From positions 12,879-76,878 of the forward strand of contig JAEETF010000016.1 in NCBI GenBank assembly GCA_016290195.1: a stretch of 64,000 bases of DNA. The letters are read 5' to 3'. The stretch comes from Bacilli bacterium (GTDB lineage: Bacteria; Bacillota_I; Bacilli_A; RF39; UBA660). Numbering within the stretch: the stretch's first letter is position 1; each line of letters starts with the position of its first letter. Positions 4,627 through 55,707 of the stretch are shown here, piece by piece. The translations under genes were made by a program, and so were the position numbers. Below the pieces are notes generated by a model. That model was not told the origin of the DNA. It was given only the letters and a program-made list of their open reading frames with translations, and made no database searches.

Positions 4627-5119
4627 TCTAATATTACCAGGTATTGTTATTATTGTTATTATTTATGGATTATATAAAAAAAGAGATATTTATAATGATT
4701 TTACTAATGGTGCAAAGCAAAGTTTTAATATGATTTTTGAAATGTTTCCATCAATGCTAGCTATGATTTTAGGTATTAATTTGTTACTTGACAGTGGTTT
4801 TATTACTAAAATATTTAGTATTTTTTCATTTAAGTTTTTACCAGTAGATATTTTTCCTATGGCCATATTAAGACCAATATCTGGAAGTTCTACATTAGCA
4901 GTTTTAACAAATATTTTTAAAGTTTCAGGACCAGATAGTTTAGCAGGTAGAATAGCTTCTATAATACAAGGATCTACTGATACAACTATTTACGTTTTAA
5001 CATTATATTTTGGAACTATTGGTATAAAAAAAATAAAATATGCTTTAACTGTAGGACTTATTTCAGATTTAATTAGTATTGTAACAGCTATTATTTTAGT
5101 AAATATATTTTTTCATTGA
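4619..5119 (+). CDS. spmB: spore maturation protein B
   Basis: ~166 aa membrane protein immediately after spmA. ATG 4619 is chosen (RBS 'agaagg') rather than the upstream in-frame ATG 4589, which overlaps spmA. Confidence 0.75.
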   Translation: MSNLILPGIVIIVIIYGLYKKRDIYNDFTNGAKQSFNMIFEMFPSMLAMILGINLLLDSGFITKIFSIFSFKFLPVDIFPMAILRPISGSSTLAVLTNIFKVSGPDSLAGRIASIIQGSTDTTIYVLTLYFGTIGIKKIKYALTVGLISDLISIVTAIILVNIFFH

Positions 5120-5159
5120 AAAAGTGTTTAATTTAATGTATAATTCATTAAAGGTGATG

Positions 5160-5882
5160 GACATGGAAAGAATCCAAAAAATAATAGCTAATCGTGGCTA
5201 TTGTTCTAGAAGAAAAGCTGAAGAATATATTTTAGCTGGTAAAGTAAGATTAAATGGTGAAATAGTAAAAGAACTTGGTACTCTTGCACAACCAAGTGAT
5301 ATTATTGAAGTTAATGGCGATATTATTAAACAAGAAGATAAAGAGTATATATTACTTTATAAACCACGTGGTGTAATTACTTCAACAAATGATGATAAAA
5401 AAAGAAAAACAGTTATTGATATAGTTAAAAGCAAAAAAAGAATTTATCCTGTAGGACGACTTGATTATGATACTAGTGGTATACTTTTACTTACTAATGA
5501 TGGTGAATTAACTAATAGCTTGATTCATCCTAAAAATGAAATAGAAAAAATGTATATTGCAAAAGTAAAAGGATTTGTAAATAAGGATGATATTAAATCA
5601 CTATGTAGGGGTGTAGTAATTGATGGATATAAAACTGCACCTGCTAAAGCAAAATTAAAAAAATATGATCGTTCAACTAATACTTCAATTGTAGAATTAA
5701 TAATTCATGAAGGAAAAAATCATCAAGTTAAAAAGATGTTTAGTACTTTAGGTTATGAGGTTTTAAAACTAAAAAGAGAAACTTTTGCCTTTTTAAATCT
5801 TAATGGATTAAAATCTGGTGAATATCGTAATTTAACTCCAAAGGAAGTAAAAATTTTATATAGTTTAGTACAAAAAAAGTAA
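5160..5882 (+). CDS. rluB: 23S rRNA pseudouridine synthase (RsuA/RluB family, S4 domain plus PseudoU_synth_2)
   Basis: N-terminal S4 'RIQKIIANRGYCSRRKAEEYI', catalytic 'PVGRLDYDTSGILLLTNDG'. RBS 'aaaggtga'. Confidence 0.8.
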   Translation, partial: DMERIQKIIANRGYCSRRKAEEYILAGKVRLNGEIVKELGTLAQPSDIIEVNGDIIKQEDKEYILLYKPRGVITSTNDDKKRKTVIDIVKSKKRIYPVGRLDYDTSGILLLTNDGELTNSLIHPKNEIEKMYIAKVKGFVNKDDIKSLCRGVVIDGYKTAPAKAKLKKYDRSTNTSIVELIIHEGKNHQVKKMFSTLGYEVLKLKRETFAFLNLNGLKSGEYRNLTPKEVKILYSLVQKK

Positions 5883-9585: not shown

Positions 9586-10302
9586 AAAATAGCAGTATTT
9601 AGTGATATTCATGGTAATTATCAAGCTACAAAAGCAATAATAGATGATATTAATAAAAATAATTTTGATGAAGTAATTTGTTTAGGTGATATAATTGGAA
9701 TTGGACCTAAACCTAAAGAATGTTTAGAACTACTACTTAATAGTGAAATTACAATTGTAGCTGGTAATCATGATTTATATTATACGAAGGGTTTAGAAAT
9801 TGATGATGAAATAACATCAGAAAATGAGATAAAACATCATCATTGGATTCATGAGTGTATAAAAGATATTCCTAAAGAAAAAATGAACTGGCCATTATCA
9901 AAAGAAATAAATGTTAATGGTAAAAAAATAGTTTTTCAGCATTATATGTTATCTAAAGATACAAGTGTTGACCCATATCCATTTGAAACTATATCAATAA
10001 GAAATATAAAAGATATTGAAGAATATTGTAAAAATATGGATTCGGATTATTTATTTATAGGACATGAACATCGAGCATTTGAAGTTCATGAAAATAATAA
10101 AAATATAATATGTGTTGGTAGTAGTGGTTGTGTAAAAACAAATAAAACGTTTTATACAATAATTGATATTAATGATGATATAAATATTACAAAAAAAGAA
10201 ATTGAATATGATAGAGATGGGTTTATAAATGATATAAAATCATATAAGTATCCTGATCAAGAGTTTATTGCTAAAGTATTACTAGGAATAGATAATTTGT
10301 AA
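9583..10302 (+). CDS. metallophosphoesterase (calcineurin-like, YfcE/MPP family)
   Basis: 'FSDIHGN', 'CLGDIIGIGP', 'GNHD', 'GHEH' phosphoesterase motifs. Confidence 0.8.
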   Translation: MKIAVFSDIHGNYQATKAIIDDINKNNFDEVICLGDIIGIGPKPKECLELLLNSEITIVAGNHDLYYTKGLEIDDEITSENEIKHHHWIHECIKDIPKEKMNWPLSKEINVNGKKIVFQHYMLSKDTSVDPYPFETISIRNIKDIEEYCKNMDSDYLFIGHEHRAFEVHENNKNIICVGSSGCVKTNKTFYTIIDINDDINITKKEIEYDRDGFINDIKSYKYPDQEFIAKVLLGIDNL

Positions 10303-10304
10303 AA

Positions 10305-10342
10305 AAATATAGTATAAAAAATATTACGTTTAACGTAATATT
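10305..10342. terminator. bidirectional intrinsic terminator between convergent genes
   Basis: Inverted repeat 'aatattacgtttaacgtaatatt' flanked by A/T runs. Confidence 0.6.
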
Positions 10343-11311
10343 TTATTTTTCAATTAAAAACGGAAGAATTTGTTCAACAGGTGTATCATGATAAATAATA
10401 TCAAATATTAAATTAATAATAGGCATCTTAATATTTTTGCTTGTAATTAATTTATGAATAGAATCTAAAGTATATAATCCTTCTATTGTGGTATTTTTGA
10501 TATAATTTTCAATTTCTTTTTTATCTTTTTTTAATCCAAGCATTTTTCCAAAAGTAAAATTTCTACTTTTAGGACTTGTACAAGTAAGAAGAATATCACC
10601 AAAGCCGGCAAAAGAAGTAATTGTTTTAGAATCACCACCAAGTTTTTCAATTAGATGTTTAATATCATTGGTAGCTTCAGTTATGAACATTGCTTGAGTA
10701 GAAATAGGTAGTCCTAAACCATCTAAAATTCCAGCAATTATGGCCATTACATTTTTAATACTTCCACATAGTTCAACACCGATAATATCTTTTGTTTCTC
10801 TTAATTTTACATGTTTATTTGCTAGAACATTTTTTGTAATATTAATTGTTTCAGTATTTTCACTAGCGATTGACAAACCAATAGGTACTTTATTTGCAAC
10901 ATCAATAGCAAATGTAGGACCAGAAATAACACATAATTTATTAGTATTAATTATTTCTTTAATAACTTTAGAAATAAATAAACAAGTATCTTGTTCTATA
11001 CCTTTAGAAGCTATACAAATATGTTTATCTTTTATGTATTCCTTATATTCAGTTATAACATTTCTAATAGTGCTAGCTGGAATAGCAATTATAACTAATT
11101 CAGAATTTATAATAGCTTTTTCAAAATCAGTAGTAATATTTATATTTTTATCAATATCAATATTTGGAAGAACAGGACTTTTTCTATTATTAATAATATA
11201 TTCTTTTTCTTCTTCAAATTTAGTCCATATTGTTACATTATGCTTATTTTCATTTGCAATAATACCTAAACATAAACCAAATGCACCAGCTCCAAGTATA
11301 CAAATATTCAT
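10343..11311 (-). CDS. gpsA: NAD(P)H-dependent glycerol-3-phosphate dehydrogenase
   Basis: 'MNICILGAGAFG' Rossmann start, 'ISGPTFAIDVA', and GpsA-like overall length. Confidence 0.9.
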   Translation of the reverse strand: MNICILGAGAFGLCLGIIANENKHNVTIWTKFEEEKEYIINNRKSPVLPNIDIDKNINITTDFEKAIINSELVIIAIPASTIRNVITEYKEYIKDKHICIASKGIEQDTCLFISKVIKEIINTNKLCVISGPTFAIDVANKVPIGLSIASENTETINITKNVLANKHVKLRETKDIIGVELCGSIKNVMAIIAGILDGLGLPISTQAMFITEATNDIKHLIEKLGGDSKTITSFAGFGDILLTCTSPKSRNFTFGKMLGLKKDKKEIENYIKNTTIEGLYTLDSIHKLITSKNIKMPIINLIFDIIYHDTPVEQILPFLIEK

Positions 11312-15756: not shown

Positions 15757-17487
15757 ATGAAAAATTTAAGAGAAATAAAACCTCTAATAAAATTTATTGA
15801 TGAAAAGGGAAAACTTATTTTTGCTAGTATTATGATTTTTTTATCAGGTATAGTAGGAATATGTTCTGGCTATTTAAATGGTGCTGCTATTGAATCTATA
15901 ACTAATATGGATGTTAAAATGGCATTAATATATTTATTAATTTATTTTATTTTAGAAATTACTTTTGATGGAGTATTTATTCAATGTGCAAATGCATCAT
16001 TATATAAAATTGAAAGTAAAATTACACGAAAATTAGGTTATGAAACATATAAAAAGACACTAGATTTACCATCTGAGGCATTTGAAGTACATACATCTGG
16101 TGAATTTATAAATCGTATCACTGGTGATGCTGATTGCTTAAGTTTTGCATTTGGTCGTCTTTTACATATGTTTTCTGAATTAATTGCGGCATTAATTATT
16201 ATTGTATATGTCTTTATTAATTCATGGATTATTGGATTAGAAATAATATGTTTCTTAATTATATTTTTTATAGTTATTAAGAAATATAATCCAGTTGTTG
16301 AAAAAATTCATAAAGATCGAAAAGCAGGACAAGATAAGTTTGCTTCTTTAACAAATGAATCAATTAGGGGTATAAGAGAAATAAAAACATTAGGTATTAA
16401 AAATAATGTCTTAAATGATATGAAAGAAATAATTAAGATTATTTTTGCTACTTCTAAAAAAGAAATAGATATTAATAATAAATTTAATATTATTACAAGA
16501 GTTCTTAGAACTATGTTAGAAGTAGGAACATTTATAATCTGTGTTATTTTACTTTATTATGGAAAAGTAACACTTACATTTTTTGTTGCTATGACATATT
16601 ATGTTTATAGATATATGTGGTTAATTGAAAATTTAAATGATTTAACAATTACATACCAAAAAACAATAGTATCTATTAAACGTGTTAATGAAATAGTATT
16701 AAATAAATTATATGAAGATGAAAAATTTGGTAATATAGAACTTACTAATAATAAAGGTATAATTGAATTTAAAAATGTTTCATTTTCATATCCTAATAAA
16801 GTTGAAACATTAAATAATTTTAATTTAAAATTAGAGCCACATAAAAAGATTGCGATTATTGGTAAATCTGGCCAAGGAAAATCAACATTATTTAATTTAC
16901 TTACTAGAATTTTTGATGTAAAATCTGGTGAAATATTATTAGATGGTGTTAATATTAAAGATTTAACTGAAAAAAATCTTCGAAATCAAATATCTATAAT
17001 AAGACAAGAACCTTTTGTATTTAACAGGTCCATAAAAGAAAATTTTGAAATTGTACGTAAAAACATAACTCTTGAAGAAATAAGAAAGTATTGTAAAGAT
17101 GCTTATATTGATGAATATATCATGAGTTTAGATGATAAGTATGATACTATTCTTGGAGAAGGTGGTATTAATTTATCTGGAGTTCAAAAACAAAGACTTG
17201 CTATTGCACGTACATTATCTAAAGGGGGAAAAGTAATTTTATTTGATGAAGCAACTAGTGCACTTGATAATGAATCACAAGAATATATTAAGAAGGCAAT
17301 AGATAAACTTGTAAAAAATCATACTGTAGTTATAATTGCTCATCGTTTATCAACAATTGAAGATGCCGATATTATTTATGTGATAGATAAAGGCCAAGTT
17401 GTATCATCAGGAACACATAATGAATTATTAAAAACAAGTAAAATTTATCAAAAACTTTATGAAAAAGAAGCTTTAAATTCGAAATAA
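15757..17487 (+). CDS. ABC exporter, fused transmembrane and ATP-binding domains (MsbA/BmrA-like half transporter)
   Basis: Walker A 'GKSGQGKST', signature 'LSGVQKQR', Walker B 'ILFDEATSALD', H-loop 'IAHRL'. RBS 'gggaggt'. Confidence 0.85.
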   Translation: MKNLREIKPLIKFIDEKGKLIFASIMIFLSGIVGICSGYLNGAAIESITNMDVKMALIYLLIYFILEITFDGVFIQCANASLYKIESKITRKLGYETYKKTLDLPSEAFEVHTSGEFINRITGDADCLSFAFGRLLHMFSELIAALIIIVYVFINSWIIGLEIICFLIIFFIVIKKYNPVVEKIHKDRKAGQDKFASLTNESIRGIREIKTLGIKNNVLNDMKEIIKIIFATSKKEIDINNKFNIITRVLRTMLEVGTFIICVILLYYGKVTLTFFVAMTYYVYRYMWLIENLNDLTITYQKTIVSIKRVNEIVLNKLYEDEKFGNIELTNNKGIIEFKNVSFSYPNKVETLNNFNLKLEPHKKIAIIGKSGQGKSTLFNLLTRIFDVKSGEILLDGVNIKDLTEKNLRNQISIIRQEPFVFNRSIKENFEIVRKNITLEEIRKYCKDAYIDEYIMSLDDKYDTILGEGGINLSGVQKQRLAIARTLSKGGKVILFDEATSALDNESQEYIKKAIDKLVKNHTVVIIAHRLSTIEDADIIYVIDKGQVVSSGTHNELLKTSKIYQKLYEKEALNSK

Positions 17488-17606: not shown

Positions 17607-18764
17607 ATGCTTAAACGATATAAGAAAAGCTATTTAGTTATAAATATAATCCTTATATTATTGCTTATTTTTACTTGCATAAATCTTTGGGCTTTAAAAA
17701 ATACTGGTTATTGGTTTTTAATTGCAACAATTGCAATACCAACAGCCATATTAATAGGAATATATGGCTATGAGGGTAAAAGTCGAAGGTTTAAATATGA
17801 ATTATCATTTTATGTATTCATATATACAATAGGTTTTTTGATAATGACATATTCACTTGGATTAATATTTGGATTTACTGGTAATGTTTATAAGCTTAAT
17901 TTAACCAATTTAGTTAATAACATTATTCCTTATGTGATGTTAATTCTTGTAACTGAAGTATTGCGATACGAGATTATTCGTAAAGGTGATGGTTCGACAT
18001 TAGCATACATATTAATTGTAATTATTTTAACAAATATTGATTTGAGTTTATTTCGTGATACATATGACTTATCTAATGGCGATGGTCAAATAAAATATAT
18101 TTGTGTTATTGCCATTCCTAGTTTATTTAAAAATGTAATATTGATGTATTATACTAAACTTGGTGGAGTATATCCTAGTTTAATATATAGGTTTCTGTTA
18201 GATTTAAAATTAGTAATTGTACCAATATTTCCAAATTTTGGCCTATATTTTGAATGTATTATTAATACTGCTTTACCAGTATTAATGATGTTTCTAATTC
18301 ATTTTAATTTGAAGAAATTTGAAGATGAAAATGAGAATATTAATATAAAAGAATCAAAAAAATATAAACTAGTTGTGATTATTATTATGCTTTCTATTGT
18401 TATTTTTGTTAATATTTTAGTAAGTTGTACACTCAAATATGGAATGATTGCCATTGGATCTAATAGTATGGTTCCAGAATTTGCTAGAGGAGATGCAATT
18501 ATATATGAAAAAGTTAATGCTAGTACTAATTTAGAAATAGGACAAATAATAATATTCAAAAAGGATAATAAAACAGTTGTTCACAGATTAATACAAATAG
18601 TGGACGTGGGTAATAACGAATATATTTATTATACTAAGGGAGATGCAAATGATAATCCCGATGGTTATCCAATTGAAAGAAAAAATATTATAGGAGTTTG
18701 TAAATTTAAAATTAAATATATAGGGTTTCCATCAGTAGTTTTAGGAGAACTTATACATAGATAG
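17607..18764 (+). CDS. fusion of a ~250-aa polytopic membrane domain of unknown family to a C-terminal SipW-type (ER/archaeal-type) signal peptidase I domain
   Basis: C-terminal TM anchor then 'GSNSMVPEF' (catalytic Ser), 'TVVHRLIQI' (His), 'KGDANDNPD'. N-terminal part has ~7 hydrophobic helices. RBS 'aggtga'. Confidence 0.7.
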   Translation: MLKRYKKSYLVINIILILLLIFTCINLWALKNTGYWFLIATIAIPTAILIGIYGYEGKSRRFKYELSFYVFIYTIGFLIMTYSLGLIFGFTGNVYKLNLTNLVNNIIPYVMLILVTEVLRYEIIRKGDGSTLAYILIVIILTNIDLSLFRDTYDLSNGDGQIKYICVIAIPSLFKNVILMYYTKLGGVYPSLIYRFLLDLKLVIVPIFPNFGLYFECIINTALPVLMMFLIHFNLKKFEDENENINIKESKKYKLVVIIIMLSIVIFVNILVSCTLKYGMIAIGSNSMVPEFARGDAIIYEKVNASTNLEIGQIIIFKKDNKTVVHRLIQIVDVGNNEYIYYTKGDANDNPDGYPIERKNIIGVCKFKIKYIGFPSVVLGELIHR

Positions 18765-18773
18765 GAGGTTGTT

Positions 18774-19799
18774 ATGAAAAAAATAAAAGATAATATAAAA
18801 ATAATTATTTGTTGTTTTTTAATACTTGCATTGAGTATATCTTTTATTTTGGAGTTTAGCTACGGAAAAAATAACTTATCCCGTAAAGGTATTTCTTTTA
18901 GTAAAGAAGCTGAGCTAAATTATGTAACATATCTAAAAAACAATAATCATTACAGTAGTGATTTTCTTGAAAATGATTATAATTATGTCGCTAATTTAGT
19001 TGATTATTTTAATTTGGATTTCAATTATTCATATGTTTTAAGTGAAAATATTGATTATAAATTGGATTATGAAATTGTAGGTTATTTAGAAATATATGAT
19101 AGCGATAATATGGCCAAGCCTATTGAAAAGAAAGAATATAATATTTTAGAAAAAGTGACGGAAGATAAAAAAGGTCAAGTTATTAATGTAGCACTACATA
19201 ATCAAAAAATAAATTATGAAACATATAGTAGTGTTGTTCAAATGTGGAAGAAAGAATTAAATCCAAATGCTAATTTAAAAGTTGTATTCAAAGTAAATTG
19301 GCAAGGATATTCAAAAGAACTAGAAAAAGAAATTTCAGATAGTTATACTAGTACTTTTGAAATTCCTTTATCAGAAAAAATAATTTCTATTTCAAAACCA
19401 TCAAATCATAATGAAACAGGATATATATATAGTAAACAATCTTTAGGAATTGTATATGTTGGATTAATGATTTTGACTGGAATATGTTTAATTTTAGTTA
19501 TTACTTATTTAATTATAACGATGATTAAAATAAATAAATCTAAATCTAAATATGAACAAAAAATTAAAAAAATCTTGCGAGAATTTGACCGTGCTATTAC
19601 TGAAGCTAAAGGTAAATTTAAAATTGAAAGAGGTGAGAAAGCAATTGAAGTTAGTGAATTTATGGAGTTGATGGATGTTCACGATAACTTACATGAACCT
19701 ATAATTTACTATAAAACTAGTGTGAATAAATGTACTTTTGTTGTTAGAAATGGCAAAGATATTTATTATACTATTATTAAAAGGGATGAGTATGAATAG
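18774..19799 (+). CDS. hypothetical bitopic membrane protein (N-terminal TM, ~190-aa extracytoplasmic domain, second TM, ~95-aa cytoplasmic tail)
   Basis: RBS 'aggagg'; 9 nt after the peptidase gene, so probably co-transcribed. Confidence 0.5.
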   Translation: MKKIKDNIKIIICCFLILALSISFILEFSYGKNNLSRKGISFSKEAELNYVTYLKNNNHYSSDFLENDYNYVANLVDYFNLDFNYSYVLSENIDYKLDYEIVGYLEIYDSDNMAKPIEKKEYNILEKVTEDKKGQVINVALHNQKINYETYSSVVQMWKKELNPNANLKVVFKVNWQGYSKELEKEISDSYTSTFEIPLSEKIISISKPSNHNETGYIYSKQSLGIVYVGLMILTGICLILVITYLIITMIKINKSKSKYEQKIKKILREFDRAITEAKGKFKIERGEKAIEVSEFMELMDVHDNLHEPIIYYKTSVNKCTFVVRNGKDIYYTIIKRDEYE

Positions 19800-19884
19800 T
19801 TTACACTATTTTACTATATGAATAAAAAAAATCTTGCTAATATAAATATTTTATGTATAATTAAAATAGAGAGGAGTTTAATAA

Positions 19885-20466
19885 ATGAAAAATAATACTA
19901 AATTTTTATATGGAATTGTTGCCGTTGCATTTTTATTATCTGTAATAGGTATTTCTGTCGGATTTGCATCTATGTCATCTAGTTTAGATGTTAAAGGACA
20001 AGCTGAGGTTGTACCTGCAAGCTGGAAAATTAAATTTAAAGATTTAAGTTCTGCAACTATTAATGGTAGTGCTACAGTTGTAACAGCACCACAAATTGAA
20101 TCTGATACTCATATTGGTGATTATGATGTAACATTATCAATGCCAGGAGATTCAGTTGTTTATACTTTTAAAGTTGCTAATAATGGAACTATCGATGCAG
20201 AATTAAGTGATTATACATTTGCTACACCAACAATTACTGGTACTGGTGATACAGCTGCTGCAGATGCTGCTATTGTTTCAAGTAATTTAGTTTATACTTT
20301 AACTTATGCTGATGGTACAGCTATTCAAAAAAATGATGAGTTATTAAAAAATACTGAAAAAACTTTAAAATTAACAGTAGCATATGATGCTAATGCAACA
20401 GAATTACCTACAAGTCAAGTAGATATCTCTGATATGGATATTACATTTACTTATTCTCAAAAATAA
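19885..20466 (+). CDS. secreted TasA/CalY/camelysin-family (Peptidase_M73-like) protein with a SipW-cognate-type signal peptide
   Basis: Signal 'FLYGIVAVAFLLSVIGISVGFASMSS'. 'LSMPGDSVVYTFKVANNGTIDAEL' resembles the TasA/CalY 'LKPGDS..KEF.L.N.GSL.IK' block. Beta-rich and Thr/Ala-rich. Confidence 0.6.
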   Translation: MKNNTKFLYGIVAVAFLLSVIGISVGFASMSSSLDVKGQAEVVPASWKIKFKDLSSATINGSATVVTAPQIESDTHIGDYDVTLSMPGDSVVYTFKVANNGTIDAELSDYTFATPTITGTGDTAAADAAIVSSNLVYTLTYADGTAIQKNDELLKNTEKTLKLTVAYDANATELPTSQVDISDMDITFTYSQK

Positions 20467-20486
20467 AAAAGTGTATTCTTAGTGAG

Positions 20487-20515
20487 ATAAGGCTAGTTTT
20501 ACTAGTCTTTTTATT
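20487..20515 (+). terminator. intrinsic terminator
   Basis: 'ggctagttttactagtc' plus 'ttttta'. Confidence 0.4.
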
Positions 20516-20574
20516 TTATTGAAATTTTAAATAAAAAATGTATAATATATATAAGTTATGAAGGGAGAGATTAT

Positions 20575-20970
20575 ATGAAAAGAAAGGGTTTAAAAGTACT
20601 TAATGGAGTTAAGTGGCTATATGTTATTGGTGCTATATTAGCTGTTATTTTTGCGGTTGTAGTTGGCTGTTTAGATAAAATACCAGATGAACTTTTATCA
20701 ATAGTTCCAAAAGATACAAAAATGGATGCCAAGACATTTTTAGTAGCATATTTTGCATGTAATGCAGCTATTGAAGTTTGGTTCTTTTGGTTATTAAATA
20801 GATTTATTAATGGTAAAAGTAATGGTACATTTTATATATTCTTATTAATACTTAGTTTAATTGGAAGTATAGTAACTCTATTTTCATCTACATCTATTTC
20901 TACTATAAATATTATATTAGATGTAATAGTATTATATTTTGCAATATTAGCTCGAAAAGATACAAAATAA
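20575..20970 (+). CDS. hypothetical small membrane protein
   Basis: RBS 'gaagggagag'; three or four TM helices. Confidence 0.4.
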   Translation: MKRKGLKVLNGVKWLYVIGAILAVIFAVVVGCLDKIPDELLSIVPKDTKMDAKTFLVAYFACNAAIEVWFFWLLNRFINGKSNGTFYIFLLILSLIGSIVTLFSSTSISTINIILDVIVLYFAILARKDTK

Positions 20971-26202: not shown

Positions 26203-26277
26203 AAAAATCTAATTTTTTTTTTGATATAAAATAGTAATTTTATTTTATTTGTATTATAATTATGATAGGTGGTTAGA

Positions 26278-27363
26278 ATGGACATTGTAATTATTATTTT
26301 ACTTGTATGTGTAATTATTTTAAATATATTATGTCTAGTTAAAAATATTAATGAATCTAATATAACTGAAAGATTAGGTAAGATGGAAACAACAGTTATT
26401 AAAGAATTAGGTGATTTTAAAAGTGATTTAAGTAATCATTTAAATAATAGTTTTGTTAATATGAATGATCGTATAGATACTAGATTAAGATTAATAGATG
26501 ATAAAGTAAATGAAAGATTAGATCAAAACTTTGAAAAGACTAATAAAACATTCACTTCAGTTTTAGAACGTTTATCTAAAATAGATGAAGCTCAAAAAAA
26601 GATAGATCATTTATCTAGTGATATAGTATCACTTCAAAGTGTTCTTACTGATAAAAAAACAAGAGGTATTTTTGGAGAAATAAATTTAAAACATATTATG
26701 AGTAATGTGTTTGGTGAGAATAATGATAAAATATACAAACTTCAATATTCTTTTGACAATAATACTATAGCTGATTGTGTTTTATTTGCACCAGAACCAC
26801 TTGGAGTAATAGCTATTGATTCAAAATTTCCACTTGAAAATTATCAATTAATGGTTGATAAAAATAATAGTGATATGGTAAGAATGCAAGCCGAAAAGAA
26901 CTTTAAAATTGATATGAAAAAACATATAGATGCCATTAGTAGTAAATATATCATAAATGGTGTTACATCTGATCAAGCTATTTTATTTTTACCAGCAGAA
27001 GCTATTTTTGCAGAAATAAATGCTTATCATAATGATATTATTGATTATGCTTATAAAAAGAAAGTATGGATTACTTCCCCAACTACACTTATTAGTACTT
27101 TAACAACTATTCAAGTAATTATTAAAAATATGGAAAGAGATAAGTATGCTAGTATAATTCATAAAGAATTAAATTTACTTTCTGAAGAATTTAGACGTTA
27201 TAAAGATAGATGGGATAAACTTTCTAAAAGTATTGATAGTGTAAGTAAAGATGTCAAAGATATTCATAATACAACTGAAAAAATAACTAAAAGATTTAAT
27301 TCTATTAATCAAGTAGAATTAGATGATCATGTTTTAATAGAAGAAGGTGACTGTAATGACTAA
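26278..27363 (+). CDS. rmuC: DNA recombination protein RmuC
   Basis: N-terminal TM plus coiled coil, then 'RGIFGEINLKHIM', 'CVLFAPEPLGVIAIDSKFPLENY' RmuC core. Confidence 0.75.
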   Translation: MDIVIIILLVCVIILNILCLVKNINESNITERLGKMETTVIKELGDFKSDLSNHLNNSFVNMNDRIDTRLRLIDDKVNERLDQNFEKTNKTFTSVLERLSKIDEAQKKIDHLSSDIVSLQSVLTDKKTRGIFGEINLKHIMSNVFGENNDKIYKLQYSFDNNTIADCVLFAPEPLGVIAIDSKFPLENYQLMVDKNNSDMVRMQAEKNFKIDMKKHIDAISSKYIINGVTSDQAILFLPAEAIFAEINAYHNDIIDYAYKKKVWITSPTTLISTLTTIQVIIKNMERDKYASIIHKELNLLSEEFRRYKDRWDKLSKSIDSVSKDVKDIHNTTEKITKRFNSINQVELDDHVLIEEGDCND

Positions 27364-28354
27364 AAAAGGATTTACGTTAGTAGAATTAATAGGCGTAATT
27401 GCTATATTAGGAGTACTTGCTGTATTTGCTATACCAGCTCTTACTAAAACTCTTAAAAAAAGCTCTGATAAAGAATATGAAGAGTTTGTTAAAAATATAA
27501 CACTTGCAGCCGAAAATTATTTTCATAGTGAGACAGATGGTAAAATAATGACTAATTCTAAAAAATTTATTAAAGTACAGGATTTAAAAGATGCAGGATA
27601 TTTAAAAAATAATGTTAATCCACTCACTAATACTAATGTATCTAATGATGCCACAGTAATAATTACTAAAAATACAGATGGTGTCGAAAAGTATGAATTT
27701 GTTGATAAAGATGTAACAATTTATGGTTATGTATCTGGAAAAGATATTCATTATGACGGTTATACTGAACCACAAAATGGATATCTAATAGATTTAACTT
27801 CTAACCATAATAATGCTGAAATGAATAACGTAACTTGGAATAATAGTTTTTATAATTTTAATGGAAATTCATATGCAAAATTTAATTCTATTAATACATT
27901 GCCAGCATCTTATTCTTTAGTTATTAAAGCGCCATATCAAGAATCTAATGTTGTGTTTGGTGATATAAATACTAATGCAGCATTTGGTTTCTATAGCTTA
28001 GATAATAAAATGTATGGCATCGCAAGTTCTGGAACTGTTCAATCTGCAAAATATAAAATGTTTGATTTGACTAATTATCCTTTTGATCAAATTACAAGTA
28101 TCCAACTTGTTTATACTTCAAGTAATATAGAACTTTATATTAACGGAAAATCAGTAACAAGTGTTAATAATATTAACTACTGGACGTGGACAGATAACTA
28201 TAGTTATTTAGGTGGAAGACCACAAAATGGAGGACTAAATTCACTATTTAGTGGAAATATATATAGTTTTATAGCTTATCATAAAGCTTTAACAACTGAT
28301 GAAATTAAACAAAATTATGAAGTAGATAAATATCGTTTTGGTGCAGGAGAGTAA
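27356..28354 (+). CDS. type IV prepilin-like protein with a C-terminal LamG/concanavalin-like jelly-roll domain
   Basis: 'MTKKG|FTLVELIGVIAILGVLA' prepilin cleavage motif (Gly-1, Phe+1, Glu+5). C-terminal '...GNIYSFIAYHKALTTDEIKQNY' resembles LamG domain ends. RBS 'gaaggtga'. Confidence 0.7.
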   Translation: MTKKGFTLVELIGVIAILGVLAVFAIPALTKTLKKSSDKEYEEFVKNITLAAENYFHSETDGKIMTNSKKFIKVQDLKDAGYLKNNVNPLTNTNVSNDATVIITKNTDGVEKYEFVDKDVTIYGYVSGKDIHYDGYTEPQNGYLIDLTSNHNNAEMNNVTWNNSFYNFNGNSYAKFNSINTLPASYSLVIKAPYQESNVVFGDINTNAAFGFYSLDNKMYGIASSGTVQSAKYKMFDLTNYPFDQITSIQLVYTSSNIELYINGKSVTSVNNINYWTWTDNYSYLGGRPQNGGLNSLFSGNIYSFIAYHKALTTDEIKQNYEVDKYRFGAGE

Positions 28355-28355
28355 T

Positions 28356-29537
28356 ATGAAAAAAACAATAAAAGATTATAATTTAAGGGGAAAAAGAGTA
28401 ATAATTCGTGTTGATTTTAATGTACCTATTAAAGATGGTATTATTACTGATGATACGCGTATTGTTGAAAGTTTAGAAACTATTAATTATGCTATAGAAA
28501 ATGGGGCTAAAGTAATTCTTATGTCTCATTTAGGACGTATAAAAGAAAAAAGTGATTTAGAAAAGAATTCTTTAAAAGCTGTTAGTGAAAGATTAAGTGA
28601 ATTATTAAATAAAAAAGTATATTTTAGTACAGTAACTAGAGGTGAAGAGTTAGAAAATTTAGTTTCTAATTTAAAAAATGGTGAAGTACTATTAATGGAA
28701 AATACTAGATATGAAGATTTAGATGATAAAAAAGAAAGTAGTAATGATATTGAACTTGGCTTATATTGGTCAAGTTTAGGTGACATATTTATTAATGATG
28801 CTTTTGGTACTAGTCATAGAGCACATGCGTCAAATGTTGGAATTGCTTCTAATTTACCTAATGGTATAGGATTTTTAATTGAAAAAGAATTAAAAATTCT
28901 TGGAAGTGCCATAAATAATCCTAAGAGACCTTTTGCAGTTATTTTAGGTGGAGCAAAAGTAAGTGATAAAATAGGGGTTATTGACAATCTTTCAAAGACT
29001 GCTGATTATATTTTAATTGGTGGAGGAATGGCTTTTACTTTCTTTAAAAGTATGGGTTATGAAATTGGAAAATCTATTTTAGATGAAGAAAGTATTGATT
29101 TTTGTAAGAATATTTTAGTAGAATATCCAGAGAAGATTATTTTACCTTCAGATGTTTTTGTGACTGAAGAAATTGAAAGTAATAGTGGTAAACTTACTTC
29201 AATTGATAATATTACTTCTAATCAAATAGGTGTTGATATTGGACCTGAAACAATAGAATTGTTTAAAAGTTATTTAGATAAATGTCAAACTATTATTTGG
29301 AATGGACCAGTAGGTATGTTTGAATATGATAGTTATGAATATGGTACAAAGAGTTTGTGTAACTATTTAGCTACTTCTAAGGCTACTACTATTATTGGTG
29401 GTGGTGATAGTGGAGCTGCTATTAATAAATTTGAATTAAAGAATCAAGTTACTCATGTATCAACTGGTGGAGGAGCTTCATTGGAGCTTTTAGAAGGAAA
29501 GAAGTTACCAGGAATTGAAGTTATAGAAGATTTATAA
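28356..29537 (+). CDS. pgk: phosphoglycerate kinase
   Basis: 'RVDFNVP', 'MSHLGRP'-like 'MSHLGRI', 'GGGASLELLEGK'. Confidence 0.9.
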   Translation: MKKTIKDYNLRGKRVIIRVDFNVPIKDGIITDDTRIVESLETINYAIENGAKVILMSHLGRIKEKSDLEKNSLKAVSERLSELLNKKVYFSTVTRGEELENLVSNLKNGEVLLMENTRYEDLDDKKESSNDIELGLYWSSLGDIFINDAFGTSHRAHASNVGIASNLPNGIGFLIEKELKILGSAINNPKRPFAVILGGAKVSDKIGVIDNLSKTADYILIGGGMAFTFFKSMGYEIGKSILDEESIDFCKNILVEYPEKIILPSDVFVTEEIESNSGKLTSIDNITSNQIGVDIGPETIELFKSYLDKCQTIIWNGPVGMFEYDSYEYGTKSLCNYLATSKATTIIGGGDSGAAINKFELKNQVTHVSTGGGASLELLEGKKLPGIEVIEDL

Positions 29538-29549
29538 AGGAAGATATAG

Positions 29550-30575
29550 ATGAAAAAGAACATGAAGAAAAAAGGAAAATCAATAATAAGTATTGTTGTA
29601 TTAATTATTGTAACAATTGCTGTATTATATTGGGAATTAAGAGATAATTATACTGAAATTATTGCAGGAATCTTGGATGCTAATAAATTATGGCTATTGG
29701 CAGCAATAGGTTGTATTGTATTATATTGGATTTTTAAAGCACATATATTTTATTCATTTACTAAAAAATTTAAATCAGACTATACATATAAAAAAGCTTT
29801 TAAACTTCAATTAGTAACTAATTTTTTTAATGGTATTACTCCTTTTTCAAGTGGAGGTCAACCATTTCAAATTTATGCATTAAAAAAACAAGGTGTTGAA
29901 CTTACAGCTGCTACTAGTATTATTATAGAAAATTTTATTGTGTATCAAATTGCTTTAGTAACACTTGGACTTATTTCAATTGTAGCTAATAGTATTTTTC
30001 ATTTTTTTGATAATGCTTCTGTATTAACTGCTTTAGTAACACTTGGATTTATTATAAATACATTAGTTATAGTTGGTTTATTTATAATAGCTTTTGCTAA
30101 AAAATTAAATAAATTTATAGTTAATAAGCTTATTAAAGTATTATCTAGAATAAGAATAGTTAAGGATGAGAAAAAAACTACAGAGAATTGGAATAATTAT
30201 ATTAATGATTTTCATGCTGGTGCAAAAGTATTAATTAATGATAAAAAATTCTTTGCAAATGCGATTTTTGATGCTTTTTTAGCATTAATATGTGAATATA
30301 TGGTTCCACTTTTTATATTCTATAGTACTGGGGATTATACTAGTGTAACTCCAATTATTGTAGTTGTTACATCAGCATATGTTATGCTTGTAGGTTCGTT
30401 TGTACCTATTCCAGGTGGAGCTGGCGGACTTGAATATGGTTTTAATAATTTCTATGGTAATTTCATTGGTGGAAGTTCTTTGGGTGTTATTATGATTTTA
30501 TGGCGTGTTGTAACATATTATTTTGGTTTAATAATTGGAGCAATTGCTGTAAATATGAAGGACAAGGAGGCATAA
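29550..30575 (+). CDS. UPF0104/lysyl-phosphatidylglycerol-synthase-TM-like flippase-type membrane protein
   Basis: 8-TM protein with short basic N-terminus; commonly paired with a GT4 glycolipid synthase as here. Confidence 0.55.
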   Translation: MKKNMKKKGKSIISIVVLIIVTIAVLYWELRDNYTEIIAGILDANKLWLLAAIGCIVLYWIFKAHIFYSFTKKFKSDYTYKKAFKLQLVTNFFNGITPFSSGGQPFQIYALKKQGVELTAATSIIIENFIVYQIALVTLGLISIVANSIFHFFDNASVLTALVTLGFIINTLVIVGLFIIAFAKKLNKFIVNKLIKVLSRIRIVKDEKKTTENWNNYINDFHAGAKVLINDKKFFANAIFDAFLALICEYMVPLFIFYSTGDYTSVTPIIVVVTSAYVMLVGSFVPIPGGAGGLEYGFNNFYGNFIGGSSLGVIMILWRVVTYYFGLIIGAIAVNMKDKEA

Positions 30576-30576
30576 A

Positions 30577-31812
30577 ATGCGTATAGGTATTTTTACAGAT
30601 ACATATCCACCATATATAAATGGTGTATCAACAAGTATTATTATGCTGGAAAATGCTTTAAAGAAACAAGGACATCAAGTATTTATTGTTACAGTAAATG
30701 ATGAAGGACATAAATATAAATATGAAAAGAATAATCATATTATTAGAGTACCTGGTATCCCGGTTGGTATTTACGATTATCGTATGACAAGTATTTATCC
30801 AATTAGAATAATAAATAAAATTAGAAAAATGAATTTAGATGTAATTCATTCACAAACTGAGTTTGGTATAGGAACATTTGCTAGAATTATTTCTAAACAA
30901 CTTAATATTCCTATAGTTCATACTTATCACACAGCTTATGAAGATTATGTGCATTATATAACGCATGGTTATTTTAATAAACCAAGTAAAAAAATAGTTG
31001 AACAAATTACTAAGTTTTATTGTGATAAAACTGTTACGGAACTTATTGTACCAACTAAAAAAATGTATAAGTTTTTTAAAACAAAATATAAATATGATCG
31101 CAATATTCATATTATTCCAACTGGAATAGAAATATCAAGGTTTTATAAAGAAAAATTTAAAGAAGAAGATACTCTTAAATTAAGAAAATCAATTGGCTTG
31201 AATAAAGATGATATTGTTATATTATTTGTCGGAAGACTTGGTCAAGAAAAGAGTATTGATGTATTGATTGAAGGACATAAAGAAATATGTAAAAAACATA
31301 AGAATGCTAAATTATTAATAATTGGTTCTGGTCCTGATGAAGAATTGTTGCAAGAATTAATAAATAAAAATAATTTACAAGATAGCGTATTAATGATAGG
31401 TAAAATTCCTTTTAATGAAATGCCTAAATATTATAGACTTGCAAATATATTTGCTACTGCTTCTCGAACAGAAACTCAAGGACTTACAGTAATTGAAGCC
31501 ATGGCTGCTTCTATTCCAGTAGTAGCTGCTTTAGATGATAGTTTTTCAGAAATAGTTGTTAATGATTTAAATGGTTATTTGTTTAAAAATAAAAAAGAGT
31601 ATGTTAAAATTATGCTTGAATTAATACCAGATAGAAATAAAATAGAATATTTAGGAACACAAGCTAGACTTTCATCAGAAAATTATTCTGATAAGTATTT
31701 TGCTGAACATGTTTTAGAAGTTTATAAATTGGCTATTAAAACTAGTGGTGTTAAAAATAGAACCTTTTTAGGAAGAGCAAAAGATGTAATTAAAAAAGGA
31801 TTAAAAAATTAA
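30577..31812 (+). CDS. GT4-family glycosyltransferase (glycolipid synthase-like)
   Basis: 'MRIGIFTDTYPPYINGVS', 'E..G.T..EAMA' ('ETQGLTVIEAMAASIPVV') GT4 motif. Confidence 0.8.
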   Translation: MRIGIFTDTYPPYINGVSTSIIMLENALKKQGHQVFIVTVNDEGHKYKYEKNNHIIRVPGIPVGIYDYRMTSIYPIRIINKIRKMNLDVIHSQTEFGIGTFARIISKQLNIPIVHTYHTAYEDYVHYITHGYFNKPSKKIVEQITKFYCDKTVTELIVPTKKMYKFFKTKYKYDRNIHIIPTGIEISRFYKEKFKEEDTLKLRKSIGLNKDDIVILFVGRLGQEKSIDVLIEGHKEICKKHKNAKLLIIGSGPDEELLQELINKNNLQDSVLMIGKIPFNEMPKYYRLANIFATASRTETQGLTVIEAMAASIPVVAALDDSFSEIVVNDLNGYLFKNKKEYVKIMLELIPDRNKIEYLGTQARLSSENYSDKYFAEHVLEVYKLAIKTSGVKNRTFLGRAKDVIKKGLKN

Positions 31813-31818
31813 AAAGAA

Positions 31819-31845
31819 GTTGTATTTGTTTACGACTTCTTTTTA
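31819..31845 (+). terminator. intrinsic terminator after the GT4 gene
   Basis: 'gaagttg...cgacttc' plus 'ttttt'. Confidence 0.45.
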
Positions 31846-31944: not shown

Positions 31945-32712
31945 ATGAAAAAAGTAAGACTTTTAGTAGTAGATGATAATAAAAATTTAGTAGATATGAT
32001 CAAAGAATATTTTAAAGAAAATAATGAAATAGAAGTTTTATATACAGCTTATGATGGGGAAGAAGGAATAGAATTAATACAAAAAGAAAAAGATAATTAT
32101 GATGTAATTATGCTCGATTTAATAATGCCTAAAAAAGATGGATTATATGTATTAGAAGAAATGAAAAAGAGAAATATTGAAAAACAAGTTATAGTAGCAA
32201 CTAGTTATAATGCTAGTGATATAATAAGAAAAGTTTCAGAAATGGGAGTTAGTTATTTTATATTAAAACCATTTGATTTAGTAGATTTAGAAAGAAGAAT
32301 AAAGGATTCAGTAACTTTGTCAAAAACCGAAGAAAAAAATATAGATTTGTACCATAATAATATTCAAGTATCAATTACAAAAGTTCTTCATGAACTTGGT
32401 ATACCATCACATATTAAAGGATATCAGTATATACGTGAGGGAATAGGAATTATATATGATAAACCAGAAACTATAGGAGGCATTACTAAAGAATTATATC
32501 CCGAATTAGCTGAAAAATTTGATACTACTGTATCTAGAGTTGAAAGAGCAATACGGCATGCGATAGAAGTTAGTTGGAATAGGGGTAGTTGGGATTTAAT
32601 GGAAGAAATATTTGGGCATAGTGTTGATATTGATAAAGCAAAACCAACTAATTCTGAATTTATTGTTACTATTGCTGATAAATTACGCCTTGAACATCAT
32701 AAAGTAAGATAA
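31945..32712 (+). CDS. spo0A: sporulation master regulator Spo0A
   Basis: Receiver domain with 'LLVVDDN', 'DVIMLDLIMP'. Spo0A_C signature 'HIKGYQYIREGI' and 'ELYPELAEKFDTTVSRVERAIRHAIEVSW'. Confidence 0.9.
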   Translation: MKKVRLLVVDDNKNLVDMIKEYFKENNEIEVLYTAYDGEEGIELIQKEKDNYDVIMLDLIMPKKDGLYVLEEMKKRNIEKQVIVATSYNASDIIRKVSEMGVSYFILKPFDLVDLERRIKDSVTLSKTEEKNIDLYHNNIQVSITKVLHELGIPSHIKGYQYIREGIGIIYDKPETIGGITKELYPELAEKFDTTVSRVERAIRHAIEVSWNRGSWDLMEEIFGHSVDIDKAKPTNSEFIVTIADKLRLEHHKVR

Positions 32713-32767: not shown

Positions 32768-33130
32768 ATGAAAAAGAATAAAGGATTTACACTTATTGAG
32801 TTAATGGCTGTACTTGTTATAATTGCTTTAATAGCTATACTTGTTGCACCAATAACATCAAAAATAATAAATAGTAATCGTAATAAAATATATGATGATC
32901 AAGTACAAACAATAATTTCGTCTGCGAAAATATGGGGTGCAGAACACCCAGGAAGATTACCTGATAAAGGAGATGTAGATGTCATTATAACTATTGGTGA
33001 ATTGCGTGAAGGTGGTTATGTTGCTAAAGATTTAGCAAATCCATTAACCAATGAACCATTTGATGATGATTGTCAGGTTGTTATTTCTAATCGTAATGGT
33101 AATTTGTTATATGAATTTTTTGTAGAGTAG
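32768..33130 (+). CDS. type IV prepilin/pseudopilin-like protein (ComGC/GspG-like size)
   Basis: 'MKKNKG|FTLIELMAVLVIIALIAILVA'. Shares an 'ANPLTN' block with the longer prepilin at 27356. Confidence 0.7.
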   Translation: MKKNKGFTLIELMAVLVIIALIAILVAPITSKIINSNRNKIYDDQVQTIISSAKIWGAEHPGRLPDKGDVDVIITIGELREGGYVAKDLANPLTNEPFDDDCQVVISNRNGNLLYEFFVE

Positions 33131-33137: not shown

Positions 33138-33485
33138 ATGAGTATAAAAATTGAAAGATTAAATAGTAGCTTTGTTAAGGAGCTTAGTTATATAATTGCA
33201 ACTGAAACAAAGGATAAAGATATTAAGAATGCTTGTATTACTGATTGCAAAGTAACTAATGATTTGAGTTTTGCTAAAGTTTATTATACTGTTTTTGATA
33301 AAGATAAAAAAAAGGAAACAGCAGAAGCACTTCGAAATGCAGCAGGATTTTTACGTACAAAACTTTGTGAACGAATAGATATTAGACATACACCAGAACT
33401 TGTATTTACTTTTGATGAATCTGTTGAATATGGTGAAAATATTGAACATATTATTCAAGAAATACATGAAAAAGATGAAAAATAA
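33138..33485 (+). CDS. second ribosome-binding factor A paralog
   Basis: Alignable along its length to the rbfA at 63465 (SSFVKELSYII... DITDCKVTNDLSFAKVYYTVF versus SSFVKEISYII... TLTGCDVTNDFSFATVYFTVL). Confidence 0.7.
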   Translation: MSIKIERLNSSFVKELSYIIATETKDKDIKNACITDCKVTNDLSFAKVYYTVFDKDKKKETAEALRNAAGFLRTKLCERIDIRHTPELVFTFDESVEYGENIEHIIQEIHEKDEK

Positions 33486-40429: not shown

Positions 40430-40873
40430 TTAATTTGCAATATCTACGTATGTATCATTTAAACATCTAATAGCACATATACAATTTAGATTTATAGTAA
40501 AGAAACTATTTGTTGTTAAATATGGGATTGTTGCTGATGTAGTTTCATCGGTATTTTCAGTTAATACTCTAAAAGTGGCACAGCAACCATCTATTTTTTC
40601 AATTCTAAAAACGCTAGAACATACTACTCCTTCATCACCACAAGTGCTATCTGTTTTAGTAGTTGGCATTGTCCATGGTGTTAATCCATTGCTAAAAGTA
40701 GTATAAAGCATTACTGGTCTAGTATTAAGTCCTATAATTGATGTTCCATTACCAAGAAAACCACGATCACAACAATCTAAACATTTATCATCTATACAAG
40801 CTGCATTTTTTTGAAGTATAGCTATAACTTTTAATATTTCAGAAATGCATCCACAAGTTTGATTTTCACACAT
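40430..40873 (-). CDS. CotY/CotZ/ExsY-family cysteine-rich spore coat/exosporium protein (paralog 1)
   Basis: 'FRIEKIDGCCATFRVL' and 'CICAIRCL' match the CotY/CotZ 'FRVEK..DCCATL' and 'CFCAIQCL' blocks. Start placed at the Met with RBS 'gggtgg'. Confidence 0.65.
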   Translation of the reverse strand: MCENQTCGCISEILKVIAILQKNAACIDDKCLDCCDRGFLGNGTSIIGLNTRPVMLYTTFSNGLTPWTMPTTKTDSTCGDEGVVCSSVFRIEKIDGCCATFRVLTENTDETTSATIPYLTTNSFFTINLNCICAIRCLNDTYVDIAN

Positions 40874-40984
40874 ATATTTTCCACCCTTTCTTTTCATATG
40901 TATTATATTCACTAAGTAAAAAGTTGTGTGAACAAGTGTCCATTTTTAATAACAAATACATATATTAATGTGAGGAGTGATAAC

Positions 40985-54881: not shown

Positions 54882-55286
54882 TTATATACAACTTACAAAA
54901 GTATCATCTAGGCACTTAATTGCCCCAAGACAATCTAAATTAACTGTGAAAAAAGAATTAGTAGCAACATAAGGATTAGGTGATTCTGTGTCAGGATTAG
55001 GTGCTAATACACGACAAGTACAACAACAACCTTCTTGAGCCTCAACTCTAAAAACACTACTTGTATCATCAGTGCCATTTAAAGTATATGGCATAGTTAA
55101 TAGAGTATTATTGCAACATGTATATAATGTAATAGGCCTTGTATTATAACATCCATTTGTTAAACAAGGTCCTAAAAAAGGTTTATCACAAGAGTCTAGT
55201 GTATCATCAATTACTTGACTTCTTTTTTGTAAGTTAATAATCGTACATAAGATGTTACTTAAGCCAGAACAGTTATTATTTTCCAT
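54882..55286 (-). CDS. CotY/CotZ/ExsY-family cysteine-rich spore coat/exosporium protein (paralog 3, downstream of tandem pair)
   Basis: 'FRVEAQEGCCCTCRVLAPNPD' and 'CLGAIKCL'. Strong RBS AAGGAGG. Only 10 nt after paralog 2. Confidence 0.65.
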   Translation of the reverse strand: MENNNCSGLSNILCTIINLQKRSQVIDDTLDSCDKPFLGPCLTNGCYNTRPITLYTCCNNTLLTMPYTLNGTDDTSSVFRVEAQEGCCCTCRVLAPNPDTESPNPYVATNSFFTVNLDCLGAIKCLDDTFVSCI

Positions 55287-55296: not shown

Positions 55297-55707
55297 TTAT
55301 AAACAACTGATATATGTATCAGCTAAACATCTAATAGCACAAGTACAATCTAAATTTATACTAACAAAATCATTAGTTGTAACATAAGGATTAGGTGAGG
55401 TTTGATCAGGATTAGGAGCTAATACACGACAAGTGCAAGAGCATCCATCAACTTTCTCAACTCTTAGTACTGATGAAGTACCTACAACTTTTTCTTCTTC
55501 ATAAGTTGTAGAGTAGGGAAATGAGAGTACAGAACCAGTACAATTATATAAACTTAGTGGTCTTGTGTTATATGAAAGACAGCTATTTTGTCTTCCTAAA
55601 ATGGGACTATCACAAGTATTTTGGATATTTTCCACTTTATTACAATTATTTTGTAGAATGACAATAGTATTCAATATATCACTTATACAACAATTGTTAT
55701 TTGACAT
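55297..55707 (-). CDS. CotY/CotZ/ExsY-family cysteine-rich spore coat/exosporium protein (paralog 2, first of tandem pair)
   Basis: 'LRVEKVDGCSCTCRVLAPNPD' and 'CTCAIRCL'. RBS 'aaaggggtgg'. Confidence 0.65.
   Translation of the reverse strand: MSNNNCCISDILNTIVILQNNCNKVENIQNTCDSPILGRQNSCLSYNTRPLSLYNCTGSVLSFPYSTTYEEEKVVGTSSVLRVEKVDGCSCTCRVLAPNPDQTSPNPYVTTNDFVSINLDCTCAIRCLADTYISCL

Follow-up and report, generated by a model that had tools for sequence, protein, structure and literature searches.

Modular pilins have been catalogued by architecture, and the combination of an N_methyl domain with PF13385 (Laminin_G_3) is among the commonest found (PMC8179133). One such protein, PilC of Streptococcus sanguinis, consists of a pilin, an immunoglobulin-like (Ig-like) module and a concanavalin A-like (ConA-like) lectin, binds sialylated and other glycans and, in a published model, forms a tip complex together with PilA and PilB (PMC9934059). 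In the present study we describe a modular prepilin gene, encoding a pilin module with a LamG module after it, at nt 27356–28354 of a 64-kb stretch of DNA (the window) from a Bacilli bacterium (contig JAEETF010000016.1). The adhesin-bearing modular architecture proposed in the original prediction matches published modular minor and tip pilins (PMC8179133, PMC9934059), and by analogy with these the pilin–LamG protein may have a minor or tip role. The protein itself is therefore an expected kind of molecule and its architecture is already known; what is new is the placement of its gene directly before pgk, the existence of pilin-only relatives and the replacement of the LamG core within a species. 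The published survey is a catalogue of architectures and contains neither the gap–pgk–tpi placement, nor the hypervariable core, nor the scatter of orphan pilin genes described below (PMC8179133).

Like PilC, the pilin–LamG protein belongs to a monoderm host and has a class III signal, a short pilin and a C-terminal ConA/LamG sandwich, and glycan adhesion would likewise be expected of it. However, PilC is a 52.8 kDa protein with an Ig-like module, encoded inside a 22-kb pil locus together with its machinery, whereas the 36 kDa pilin–LamG protein has no Ig-like module, its LamG domain being joined directly to the pilin, and its gene stands as an orphan with rmuC and pgk as its neighbours. PilC was absent from the 33 PDB sequence matches (E≤1) and from the 50 Foldseek matches listed, and because it is not among these the two lectins are related at superfamily level at most. 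With ComGC, ComGD, ComGE and ComGF and with GspG, the protein shares a short basic leader, the GFTLxE motif, an α1 helix and a small globular head. In contrast with the ComG pseudopilins, which have no LamG domain, it is not encoded in a comG operon, and its scores against the NCBIfam equivalog models are far below their cut-offs (given in parentheses), at 30.6–33.5 bits for ComGC (75), 24–26 for ComGE (49) and 19–21 for ComGD (70); the score with GspG was 26.7–28.1 (88.85), and the GspG, PilA and ComGC matches were all partial.

The predicted product has 332 amino acids (aa) and begins with MTKKGFTLVELIGVIAILGVLAVFAIPAL. Although an in-frame GTG at nt 27347 is also available as an upstream start, it is unsupported, because the homologues all begin MKKxG, and the ATG is taken as the start codon. 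The open reading frame (ORF) cannot be a chance one, as approx. 40 full-length homologues share its architecture and the signal residues are invariant in 39 of them. Its N-terminus, MTKKG followed by FTLVELIGVIAILGVLAVFAIPAL, has the short positively charged leader ending in Gly(−1) of a class III signal, and this is followed by Phe(+1), Glu(+5) and approx. 20 hydrophobic residues (FTLVELIGVIAILGVLAVFAIP), as in type IV pilins. The class III leader with Glu(+5) that had been noted from the sequence (MTKKG/FTLVE) is borne out by two models that both score above cut-off, namely Pfam N_methyl (24.9 bits, gathering threshold 21.2, residues 3–25) and TIGR02532 IV_pilin_GFxxxE (26.2 bits, cut-off 16.3), the latter being the sole NCBIfam model passed and one that describes a generic prepilin domain. 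Gly(−1), Phe(+1), Thr(+2), Leu(+3) and Glu(+5) are invariant across the 39 homologues, down to 25% identity, and this invariance indicates more than a plain membrane anchor, which would not need Gly(−1), Phe(+1) and Glu(+5). In the full-length AlphaFold2 (AF2) model a 52-residue α1 helix (residues 8–59) is followed by a small β-sheet and then by a β-sandwich, and the pilin module modelled alone gave the same helix with four to five strands and a mean predicted local distance difference test (pLDDT) score of 86.5. The globular pilin module is conserved, with a mean pairwise identity of 63%.

The C-terminal part of the protein had been read as a LamG-type domain, and both domain searches and modelling agree with this. 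Laminin_G_3 matched residues 187–318 with 33.1 bits (gathering threshold 27.6), and the full-length AF2 model, built with 39 homologues in the alignment (pLDDT 83, predicted template modelling score 0.79), has a sandwich at residues 129–308, separated from the pilin module by a linker of approx. eight residues, and a terminal helix at residues 314–328. The original prediction would have been refuted had this domain not modelled as a jelly roll; it does so, and in a Foldseek search of the PDB it matched botulinum neurotoxin Hc-N, the lectin domain of the Trypanosoma cruzi trans-sialidase and the glycoside hydrolase family 43 (GH43) protein AbnA with E values of 1e−10 to 1e−9 and a probability of 1.00, the top matches being carbohydrate- or ganglioside-binding lectin-type domains. 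With the family profile the PDB match was to 4qvs_A, a LamG-type S-layer-domain protein (4.6e−16 over residues 127–323), and the same profile also matched the N-termini of several pilins, S. sanguinis PilE1 among them, and the carbohydrate-binding module family 40 (CBM40) lectins of sialidases (approx. 1e−4). Invariant residues of the LamG part fall in a framework motif, HYDGY...W.DLSGNGN, and in the C-terminal helix; across the 39 homologues Leu312, Asn320 and Arg327 are invariant and Thr313, Glu316, Asp324 and Phe328 are at least 90% conserved. From these models we infer that the LamG domain would bind carbohydrate.

Between these conserved parts lies a region that is scarcely conserved. In an alignment of 11 proteins the pilin modules are 95% identical and the C-termini 90%, whereas residues 176–300 have a mean identity of only 26% and fall into four groups that are about 10–18% identical with one another. 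The same is seen in nucleotide sequences of four conspecific contigs from different samples (L001, L007, L090 and L091; L numbers denote the loci fetched for comparison), whose flanking genes are 95–99% identical but whose mean pairwise identity drops, with sharp edges, to 0.30–0.44 over approx. 420 nt (L001 10484–10904). Each core allele was found on several independent contigs, and the variation is therefore not an assembly artefact. The alleles include indels and differ by replacement of the whole core, with no frameshifts. A search of the 64-kb window found no silent cassette or second copy of the core, and Pfam scans of the window ORFs found no reverse transcriptase; the possibility that the core is the target of a diversity-generating retroelement is ruled out by the indels, the 30–44% nucleotide identity and the lack of both a second copy and a reverse transcriptase. 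Given the indels, the absence of a second copy and the recurrence of alleles, allelic cassette replacement, rather than retroelement mutagenesis or assembly error, accounts for the pattern. These data show wholesale replacement of the LamG core from strain to strain within one species, as is typical of determinants of specificity or antigenicity that are exposed at the surface. Neisseria PilE, with its pilS cassettes, likewise has conserved N- and C-terminal parts that flank a hypervariable surface-exposed region; however, in the present case there is no silent cassette in the window, the variation is between strains and the variable part is the lectin module and not the pilin head.

The pilin module, by contrast with the lectin, is kept throughout. 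In locus L008 (2310–2687) a clear orthologue with 54% identity over residues 3–120 ends just past the pilin module (...TEKYEFVERDINEEDNQGL, then stop), within the same rmuC–pilin–pgk gene order as in the window, and in L020 (9944–10369) and L070 (855–1244) the slot directly 5′ of pgk is occupied by pilins of 117–122 aa without LamG. As these three relatives keep the pilin module alone, the LamG module is dispensable, and the pilin is the conserved unit and the lectin a graft, such a grafted extra module being how a modular pilin is defined (PMC8179133).

A prepilin gene lies directly 5′ of pgk in all of the pgk-bearing loci fetched, i.e. the window, L001–L012, L020, L070, L086 and L088–L091, and this linkage holds down to 25% identity, with a spacing of 1 nt in the window and of 1–11 nt in the other loci with called genes. 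The housekeeping context that had been called odd is thus not peculiar to this genome, the placement of the pilin directly before pgk being ancient and conserved across the clade. Two distant members, P0036 (32% identity) and P0037 (31%), have the order gap, pilin–LamG, pgk, (LPG_synthase_TM), GT4 glycosyltransferase, tpi and spo0A, and because of this order the pilin is placed inside the classical gap–pgk–tpi cluster, itself interleaved with two envelope genes. From these arrangements we infer gap–pilin–pgk–(LPG_synthase_TM)–GT4–tpi–spo0A as the probable ancestral order. The gap gene lies upstream of the pilin gene in L005 and L086 but not in the window (upstream of nt 26269), where, as in the rest of its sub-lineage, rmuC takes its place; tpi is present between GT4 and spo0A in L001 and L086 and is missing from there in the window and in L006. 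With tpi and gap both missing from their places, the glycolytic cluster of the window is reduced to pgk alone. Our search of the literature found no link between pilins and glycolytic operons.

At the nucleotide level, the rmuC stop codon (TAA, nt 27361–27363) falls inside the first pilin codons, giving an 8-nt overlap (ATGACTAA), and the pilin stop codon (TAA, nt 28352–28354) is separated from the pgk ATG (nt 28356) by 1 nt. Both junctions had been described from the sequence and were confirmed on it, as were all other checkable details of that description. The linkage with rmuC that had been drawn from the overlap stands for the window, but the overlap recurs only in L006, which has the closest gene order, the other relatives having an ORF of 83–89 aa between the two genes, and the ancestral gene in that upstream position is gap. 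On the plus strand between 24.7 and 33.6 kb a consensus scan detected a single terminator-like hairpin, which follows GT4 and is the likely end of the unit. This would suit a transcription unit extending from rmuC as far as GT4, although such a scan is no evidence of function, and LPG_synthase_TM and GT4 are thus probably in the same transcription unit as the pilin. A promoter scan returned 88 sites against 73 expected in AT-rich DNA and was not usable. The features of the locus are collected in Table 1.

Table 1 Features of the pilin–LamG locus in the 64-kb window
Feature	Position (nt)	Strand	Basis
Modular prepilin gene, pilin module then LamG module (332 aa + stop)	27356–28354	+	ORF; Pfam N_methyl and Laminin_G_3; approx. 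40 full-length homologues
Leader MTKKG, with a predicted prepilin-peptidase site following Gly5	27356–27370	+	Sequence; Gly5 invariant in 39 homologues; TIGR02532 match
Mature N-terminus FTLVE... (Phe+1, Glu+5) and long α1 helix, aa 8–59	27371–27532	+	N_methyl; AF2 helix in both models; F6, T7, L8, E10 and P27 invariant
Globular pilin part, aa 60–125: strand, short helix, β-hairpins	27533–27730	+	AF2 pLDDT 85–95
LamG/ConA-like β-sandwich, aa 129–308	27740–28279	+	Pfam envelope aa 187–318; AF2 strands; Foldseek jelly rolls; 4qvs_A 4.6e−16
Position matching the hypervariable LamG core, aa ~176–300	27881–28255	+	Protein alignment and nucleotide identity in relatives
Conserved C-terminal helix, aa 314–328, TTDEIKQNYEVDKYR	28295–28339	+	AF2 helix
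Shine–Dalgarno-like AGGTGA, 5 nt before the ATG at 27356, within rmuC 3′ end	27345–27350	+	Read from sequence
Shine–Dalgarno-like AGGAG for pgk, within last pilin codons	28345–28349	+	Read from sequence
rmuC, upstream neighbour	26269–27363	+	Pfam RmuC 7e−58
pgk, downstream neighbour	28356–29537	+	Pfam PGK 4e−145
LPG_synthase_TM membrane protein (29550–30575) and GT4 glycosyltransferase (30577–31812)	29550–31812	+	Pfam; homology with L001 GT4 genes
Sole terminator-like hairpin on the plus strand in 24.7–33.6 kb, after GT4	31810–31845	+	Consensus scan only
spo0A	31945–32712	+	
Second small prepilin, 120 aa, MKKNKG/FTLIE, between spo0A and rbfA	32768–33130	+	N_methyl 35.5 bits

Besides the pilin–LamG protein, only the small prepilin listed last in Table 1, encoded 4.4 kb downstream, has a class III signal in the window. 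It is 31% identical with the pilin module (tblastn of residues 4–115 against nt 32780–33118, E 4e−12) and is found at the same position in L001, L007, L090 and L091, and it is a candidate partner subunit. The rbfA gene that follows it (33138–33485) has a paralogue after infB (63465–63806).

In related metagenome-assembled genomes (MAGs), lone prepilin genes encoding proteins of 120–2151 aa are scattered among housekeeping genes, the settings including gap–pilin–pgk, spo0A–pilin–rbfA, both sides of ftsK, both sides of a pyruvate:ferredoxin oxidoreductase gene and the position before a U32 peptidase gene. In L026 (1284–6823) orphan prepilins, one of them with DUF6273 (617 aa), stand on both sides of ftsK, and in L048, from the same MAG (CAKOTU01), prepilin genes at 4636–5568, 9992–11158 and 16579–16941 precede HD-domain and U32 peptidase genes; there was no assembly ATPase within 10 kb of the orphan prepilins in either locus. 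Locus L092 (5945–16406) has five N_methyl genes in 11 kb, of which three encode small pilins between lepB and a GTPase gene, one a 505-aa pilin–LamG protein before the pyruvate:ferredoxin oxidoreductase gene and one a 458-aa pilin after it. A small pilin of approx. 124–134 aa is followed by a giant prepilin in L018 (10001–13547), L024 (9992–16863) and L072 (5420–12159), the giant proteins extending for 1045, 2151 and 2107 aa respectively after the cleavage site. We found no literature on the pilins of RF39, RFN20 or ML615J-28.

The family of the pilin–LamG protein comprises approx. 40 full-length homologues at 40–45% identity and more at 25–33%, all on low-GC contigs (25–33%) from gut MAGs that are labelled uncultured Bacilli, ‘Tenericutes’ UMGS1045 and similar and that derive from human, rabbit, mouse, roe deer and sheep samples. 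The species of the window is not represented in GTDB, where the best match among representatives was 40% identical, and an exhaustive search of representatives with the family profile gave 220,136 hits, mostly giant multi-LamG proteins with a few variants having a pilin and two LamG domains. Several loci (L005/L010, L012, L020, L021, L027, L044 and L047) carry Ignavibacteriales, Muribaculaceae or Vescimonas labels. These labels fit badly, because the loci are of low GC content (28–33% in L005, L012 and L020, the three measured) and those checked carry spo0A (L005/L010, L012 and L020; L005 and L086 also have genes for small acid-soluble spore proteins and ezrA), and they probably reflect mis-binning or mislabelling. 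Although its base composition resembles that of Mollicutes (25.6% GC), the host of the window itself probably forms spores, as spo0A is accompanied by three CotZ-like spore-coat genes (40430–40912, 54882–55286 and 55297–55707, all on the minus strand). The window otherwise contains housekeeping, sporulation and envelope genes; a poorly characterized group at 17607–20970 on the plus strand comprises a gene for a 385-aa protein whose match with Peptidase_S26 is weak and below threshold, a DUF5305 gene and two ORFs that match nothing in Pfam.

Taking these results together, we consider with moderate confidence that the pilin–LamG protein is a filament-displayed, strain-variable glycan adhesin that is read through with pgk. 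In such a scheme the prepilin would enter the membrane and be cleaved after Gly5 by a prepilin peptidase encoded elsewhere, and an assembly ATPase and platform would insert its α1 helix into a type IV filament, either a type IV pilus or a Com-type structure. The filament would then present the LamG domain, which might bind glycans of host mucus, of the diet or of other cells, glycans being the obvious ligands as the hosts are gut MAGs. Diversifying selection on the core could come from the range of ligands or from antibody or phage, with homologous recombination in the conserved 5′ and 3′ stretches of the gene exchanging the core, and expression, if read through with pgk, would be constitutive and tied to growth. 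Given that comG and tad loci have been reported in Erysipelotrichales, a related order (PMC12786226), it is plausible, by analogy, that the lineage encodes a prepilin peptidase.

A number of observations weigh against this interpretation, foremost those on the machinery. No T2SSE, T2SSF, Peptidase_A24 or PilM, PilN or PilO was found in the 64-kb window, in which ORFs of at least 90 aa were assessed by Pfam or recognized translation from 12.5 to 64 kb and by translation only from 1 to 12.5 kb, several ORFs being without any Pfam match. The absence of pilB, pilC, pilD and pilM from the window, as stated in the original prediction, accordingly holds in the ORF scans and, for T2SSE only, in a phmmer search with T2SSE seeds. 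That phmmer search found no T2SSE in the window or in the Bacilli loci among L001–L085, although it did find ATPases beside pilins in Nitrospirota, proteobacterial and verrucomicrobial loci. For T2SSE it took the place of PROSITE-style regular expressions, written for T2SSE, T2SSF and A24 and applied to six-frame translations, that were too strict; A24 and T2SSF were sought in L001–L085 only by these motifs, which found neither and missed bona fide type II secretion loci too. A Walker-A ORF in L026 that had been a candidate assembly ATPase proved to be FtsK, and those of L025 and L029 are assumed to be FtsK from their similar pilin–hit–pilin layout; none of the four Walker-A ORFs of L026, L025, L029 and L018 matched the T2SSE seeds. 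A metagenome scan for TGPTGSGKTT restricted to AT-rich codons gave 120 T2SSE loci, none with pilins closer than E~1e−8 to those of the clade, the organisms returned being unrelated low-GC ones. In addition, when the pilin module was searched by itself, Foldseek matched no solved pilin significantly, PulG (1t92) appearing at rank 26 with an E value of 2.8, and the protein lies below every ComG and GspG equivalog cut-off. The pLDDT falls to its minimum, 58–77, in the variable LamG core, and glycan binding is read from the fold only, in a ConA-like superfamily that also holds enzymes. Finally, nearly all large ORFs of the window are on the plus strand, separated by very short gaps or overlapping one another, and because genes are so tightly packed and co-oriented the adjacency of pilin and pgk is weak evidence of a functional link and may be without functional meaning.

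The lack of a T2SSE ATPase beside any pilin in the window and in the Bacilli loci among L001–L085 would suit display without a filament, in which the class III signal and α1 helix serve only as an anchor and stalk for LamG and the scattered pilins constitute a general display route. The class III-signal sugar-binding proteins of Sulfolobus are comparable in logic, and the lone prepilins of widely differing length among the housekeeping genes of related MAGs would also fit, as would the reported lack of sortases in the related orders RFN20 and ML615J-28 (Field et al., PMC10868615), which would call for some other display route, although membership of our host in either group is not established and the idea that pilins stand in for sortase substrates is a lead only. 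We nevertheless think anchorage alone unlikely, since Phe(+1) and Glu(+5), which serve processing and assembly and not anchoring, are invariant, the globular module is conserved and is kept in L008 where LamG has been lost, and an anchor would need a prepilin peptidase too. If, on the other hand, a filament is formed, the protein might be its major (shaft) subunit, coating it with LamG along its length. Firmicute gapA operons are usually very highly expressed, and the gap–pgk slot lies in such an operon; moreover, the gene in this slot in L008, L020 and L070 encodes a product of major-pilin size, and the closest partial NCBIfam matches, all below cut-off, are to the major pilins PilA, ComGC and GspG. 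However, a 36 kDa subunit to which a 200-aa domain is rigidly attached would be an unusual shaft pilin in bacteria, and the other small pilins in the same genomes suit that role better, which leaves a shaft function improbable.

As regards the C-terminal domain, glycoside hydrolases and lyases are among the members of the ConA-like superfamily, the family profile weakly matches the polyguluronate lyase 1uai (E 0.2) and the GH43 arabinanase 5hon, AbnA is among the Foldseek matches and peptidase-bearing modular pilins have been predicted from InterPro architectures (PMC8179133), so that a glucanase or lyase borne on a pilin might be envisaged in place of a lectin. The best matches, however, are to non-catalytic lectin-type modules, and the core, the expected place of a catalytic cleft, shows no conservation whatever, making an enzyme very unlikely. 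That the gene is a decaying or functionless remnant between essential genes might be argued from its orphan position without nearby machinery and from the loss of LamG in some lineages, but we find this barely credible for an ORF that is intact in approx. 40 lineages and on many independent contigs, with invariant signal-peptide residues, synteny kept down to 25% identity and alleles in which the whole core has been replaced with no frameshift. Our preferred interpretation remains a filament-displayed, strain-variable glycan adhesin.

Modular type IV pilins are a recognized means of displaying bacterial adhesins on filaments, work on them has been confined almost entirely to S. sanguinis and a few pathogens, and the present family extends them to uncultured gut commensals of humans, mice, rabbits and ruminants. 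The pgk-linked slot, held since deep in the clade, predicts constitutive, growth-linked expression, and swapping of the lectin core is what would be expected of a specificity determinant exposed to host or phage; the core could serve as a strain marker and as a handle on colonization specificity. A broader and decidedly speculative proposal is that the clade sets its pilin genes singly into housekeeping operons as a modular surface repertoire, with members of more than 2000 aa, that might replace sortase-anchored adhesins, the pgk-linked member being a strain-variable lectin tied to glycolytic expression and possibly a shaft subunit. If true genome-wide, such scattered orphan pilins would represent an unreported organization of the cell-surface proteome in reduced Bacilli.

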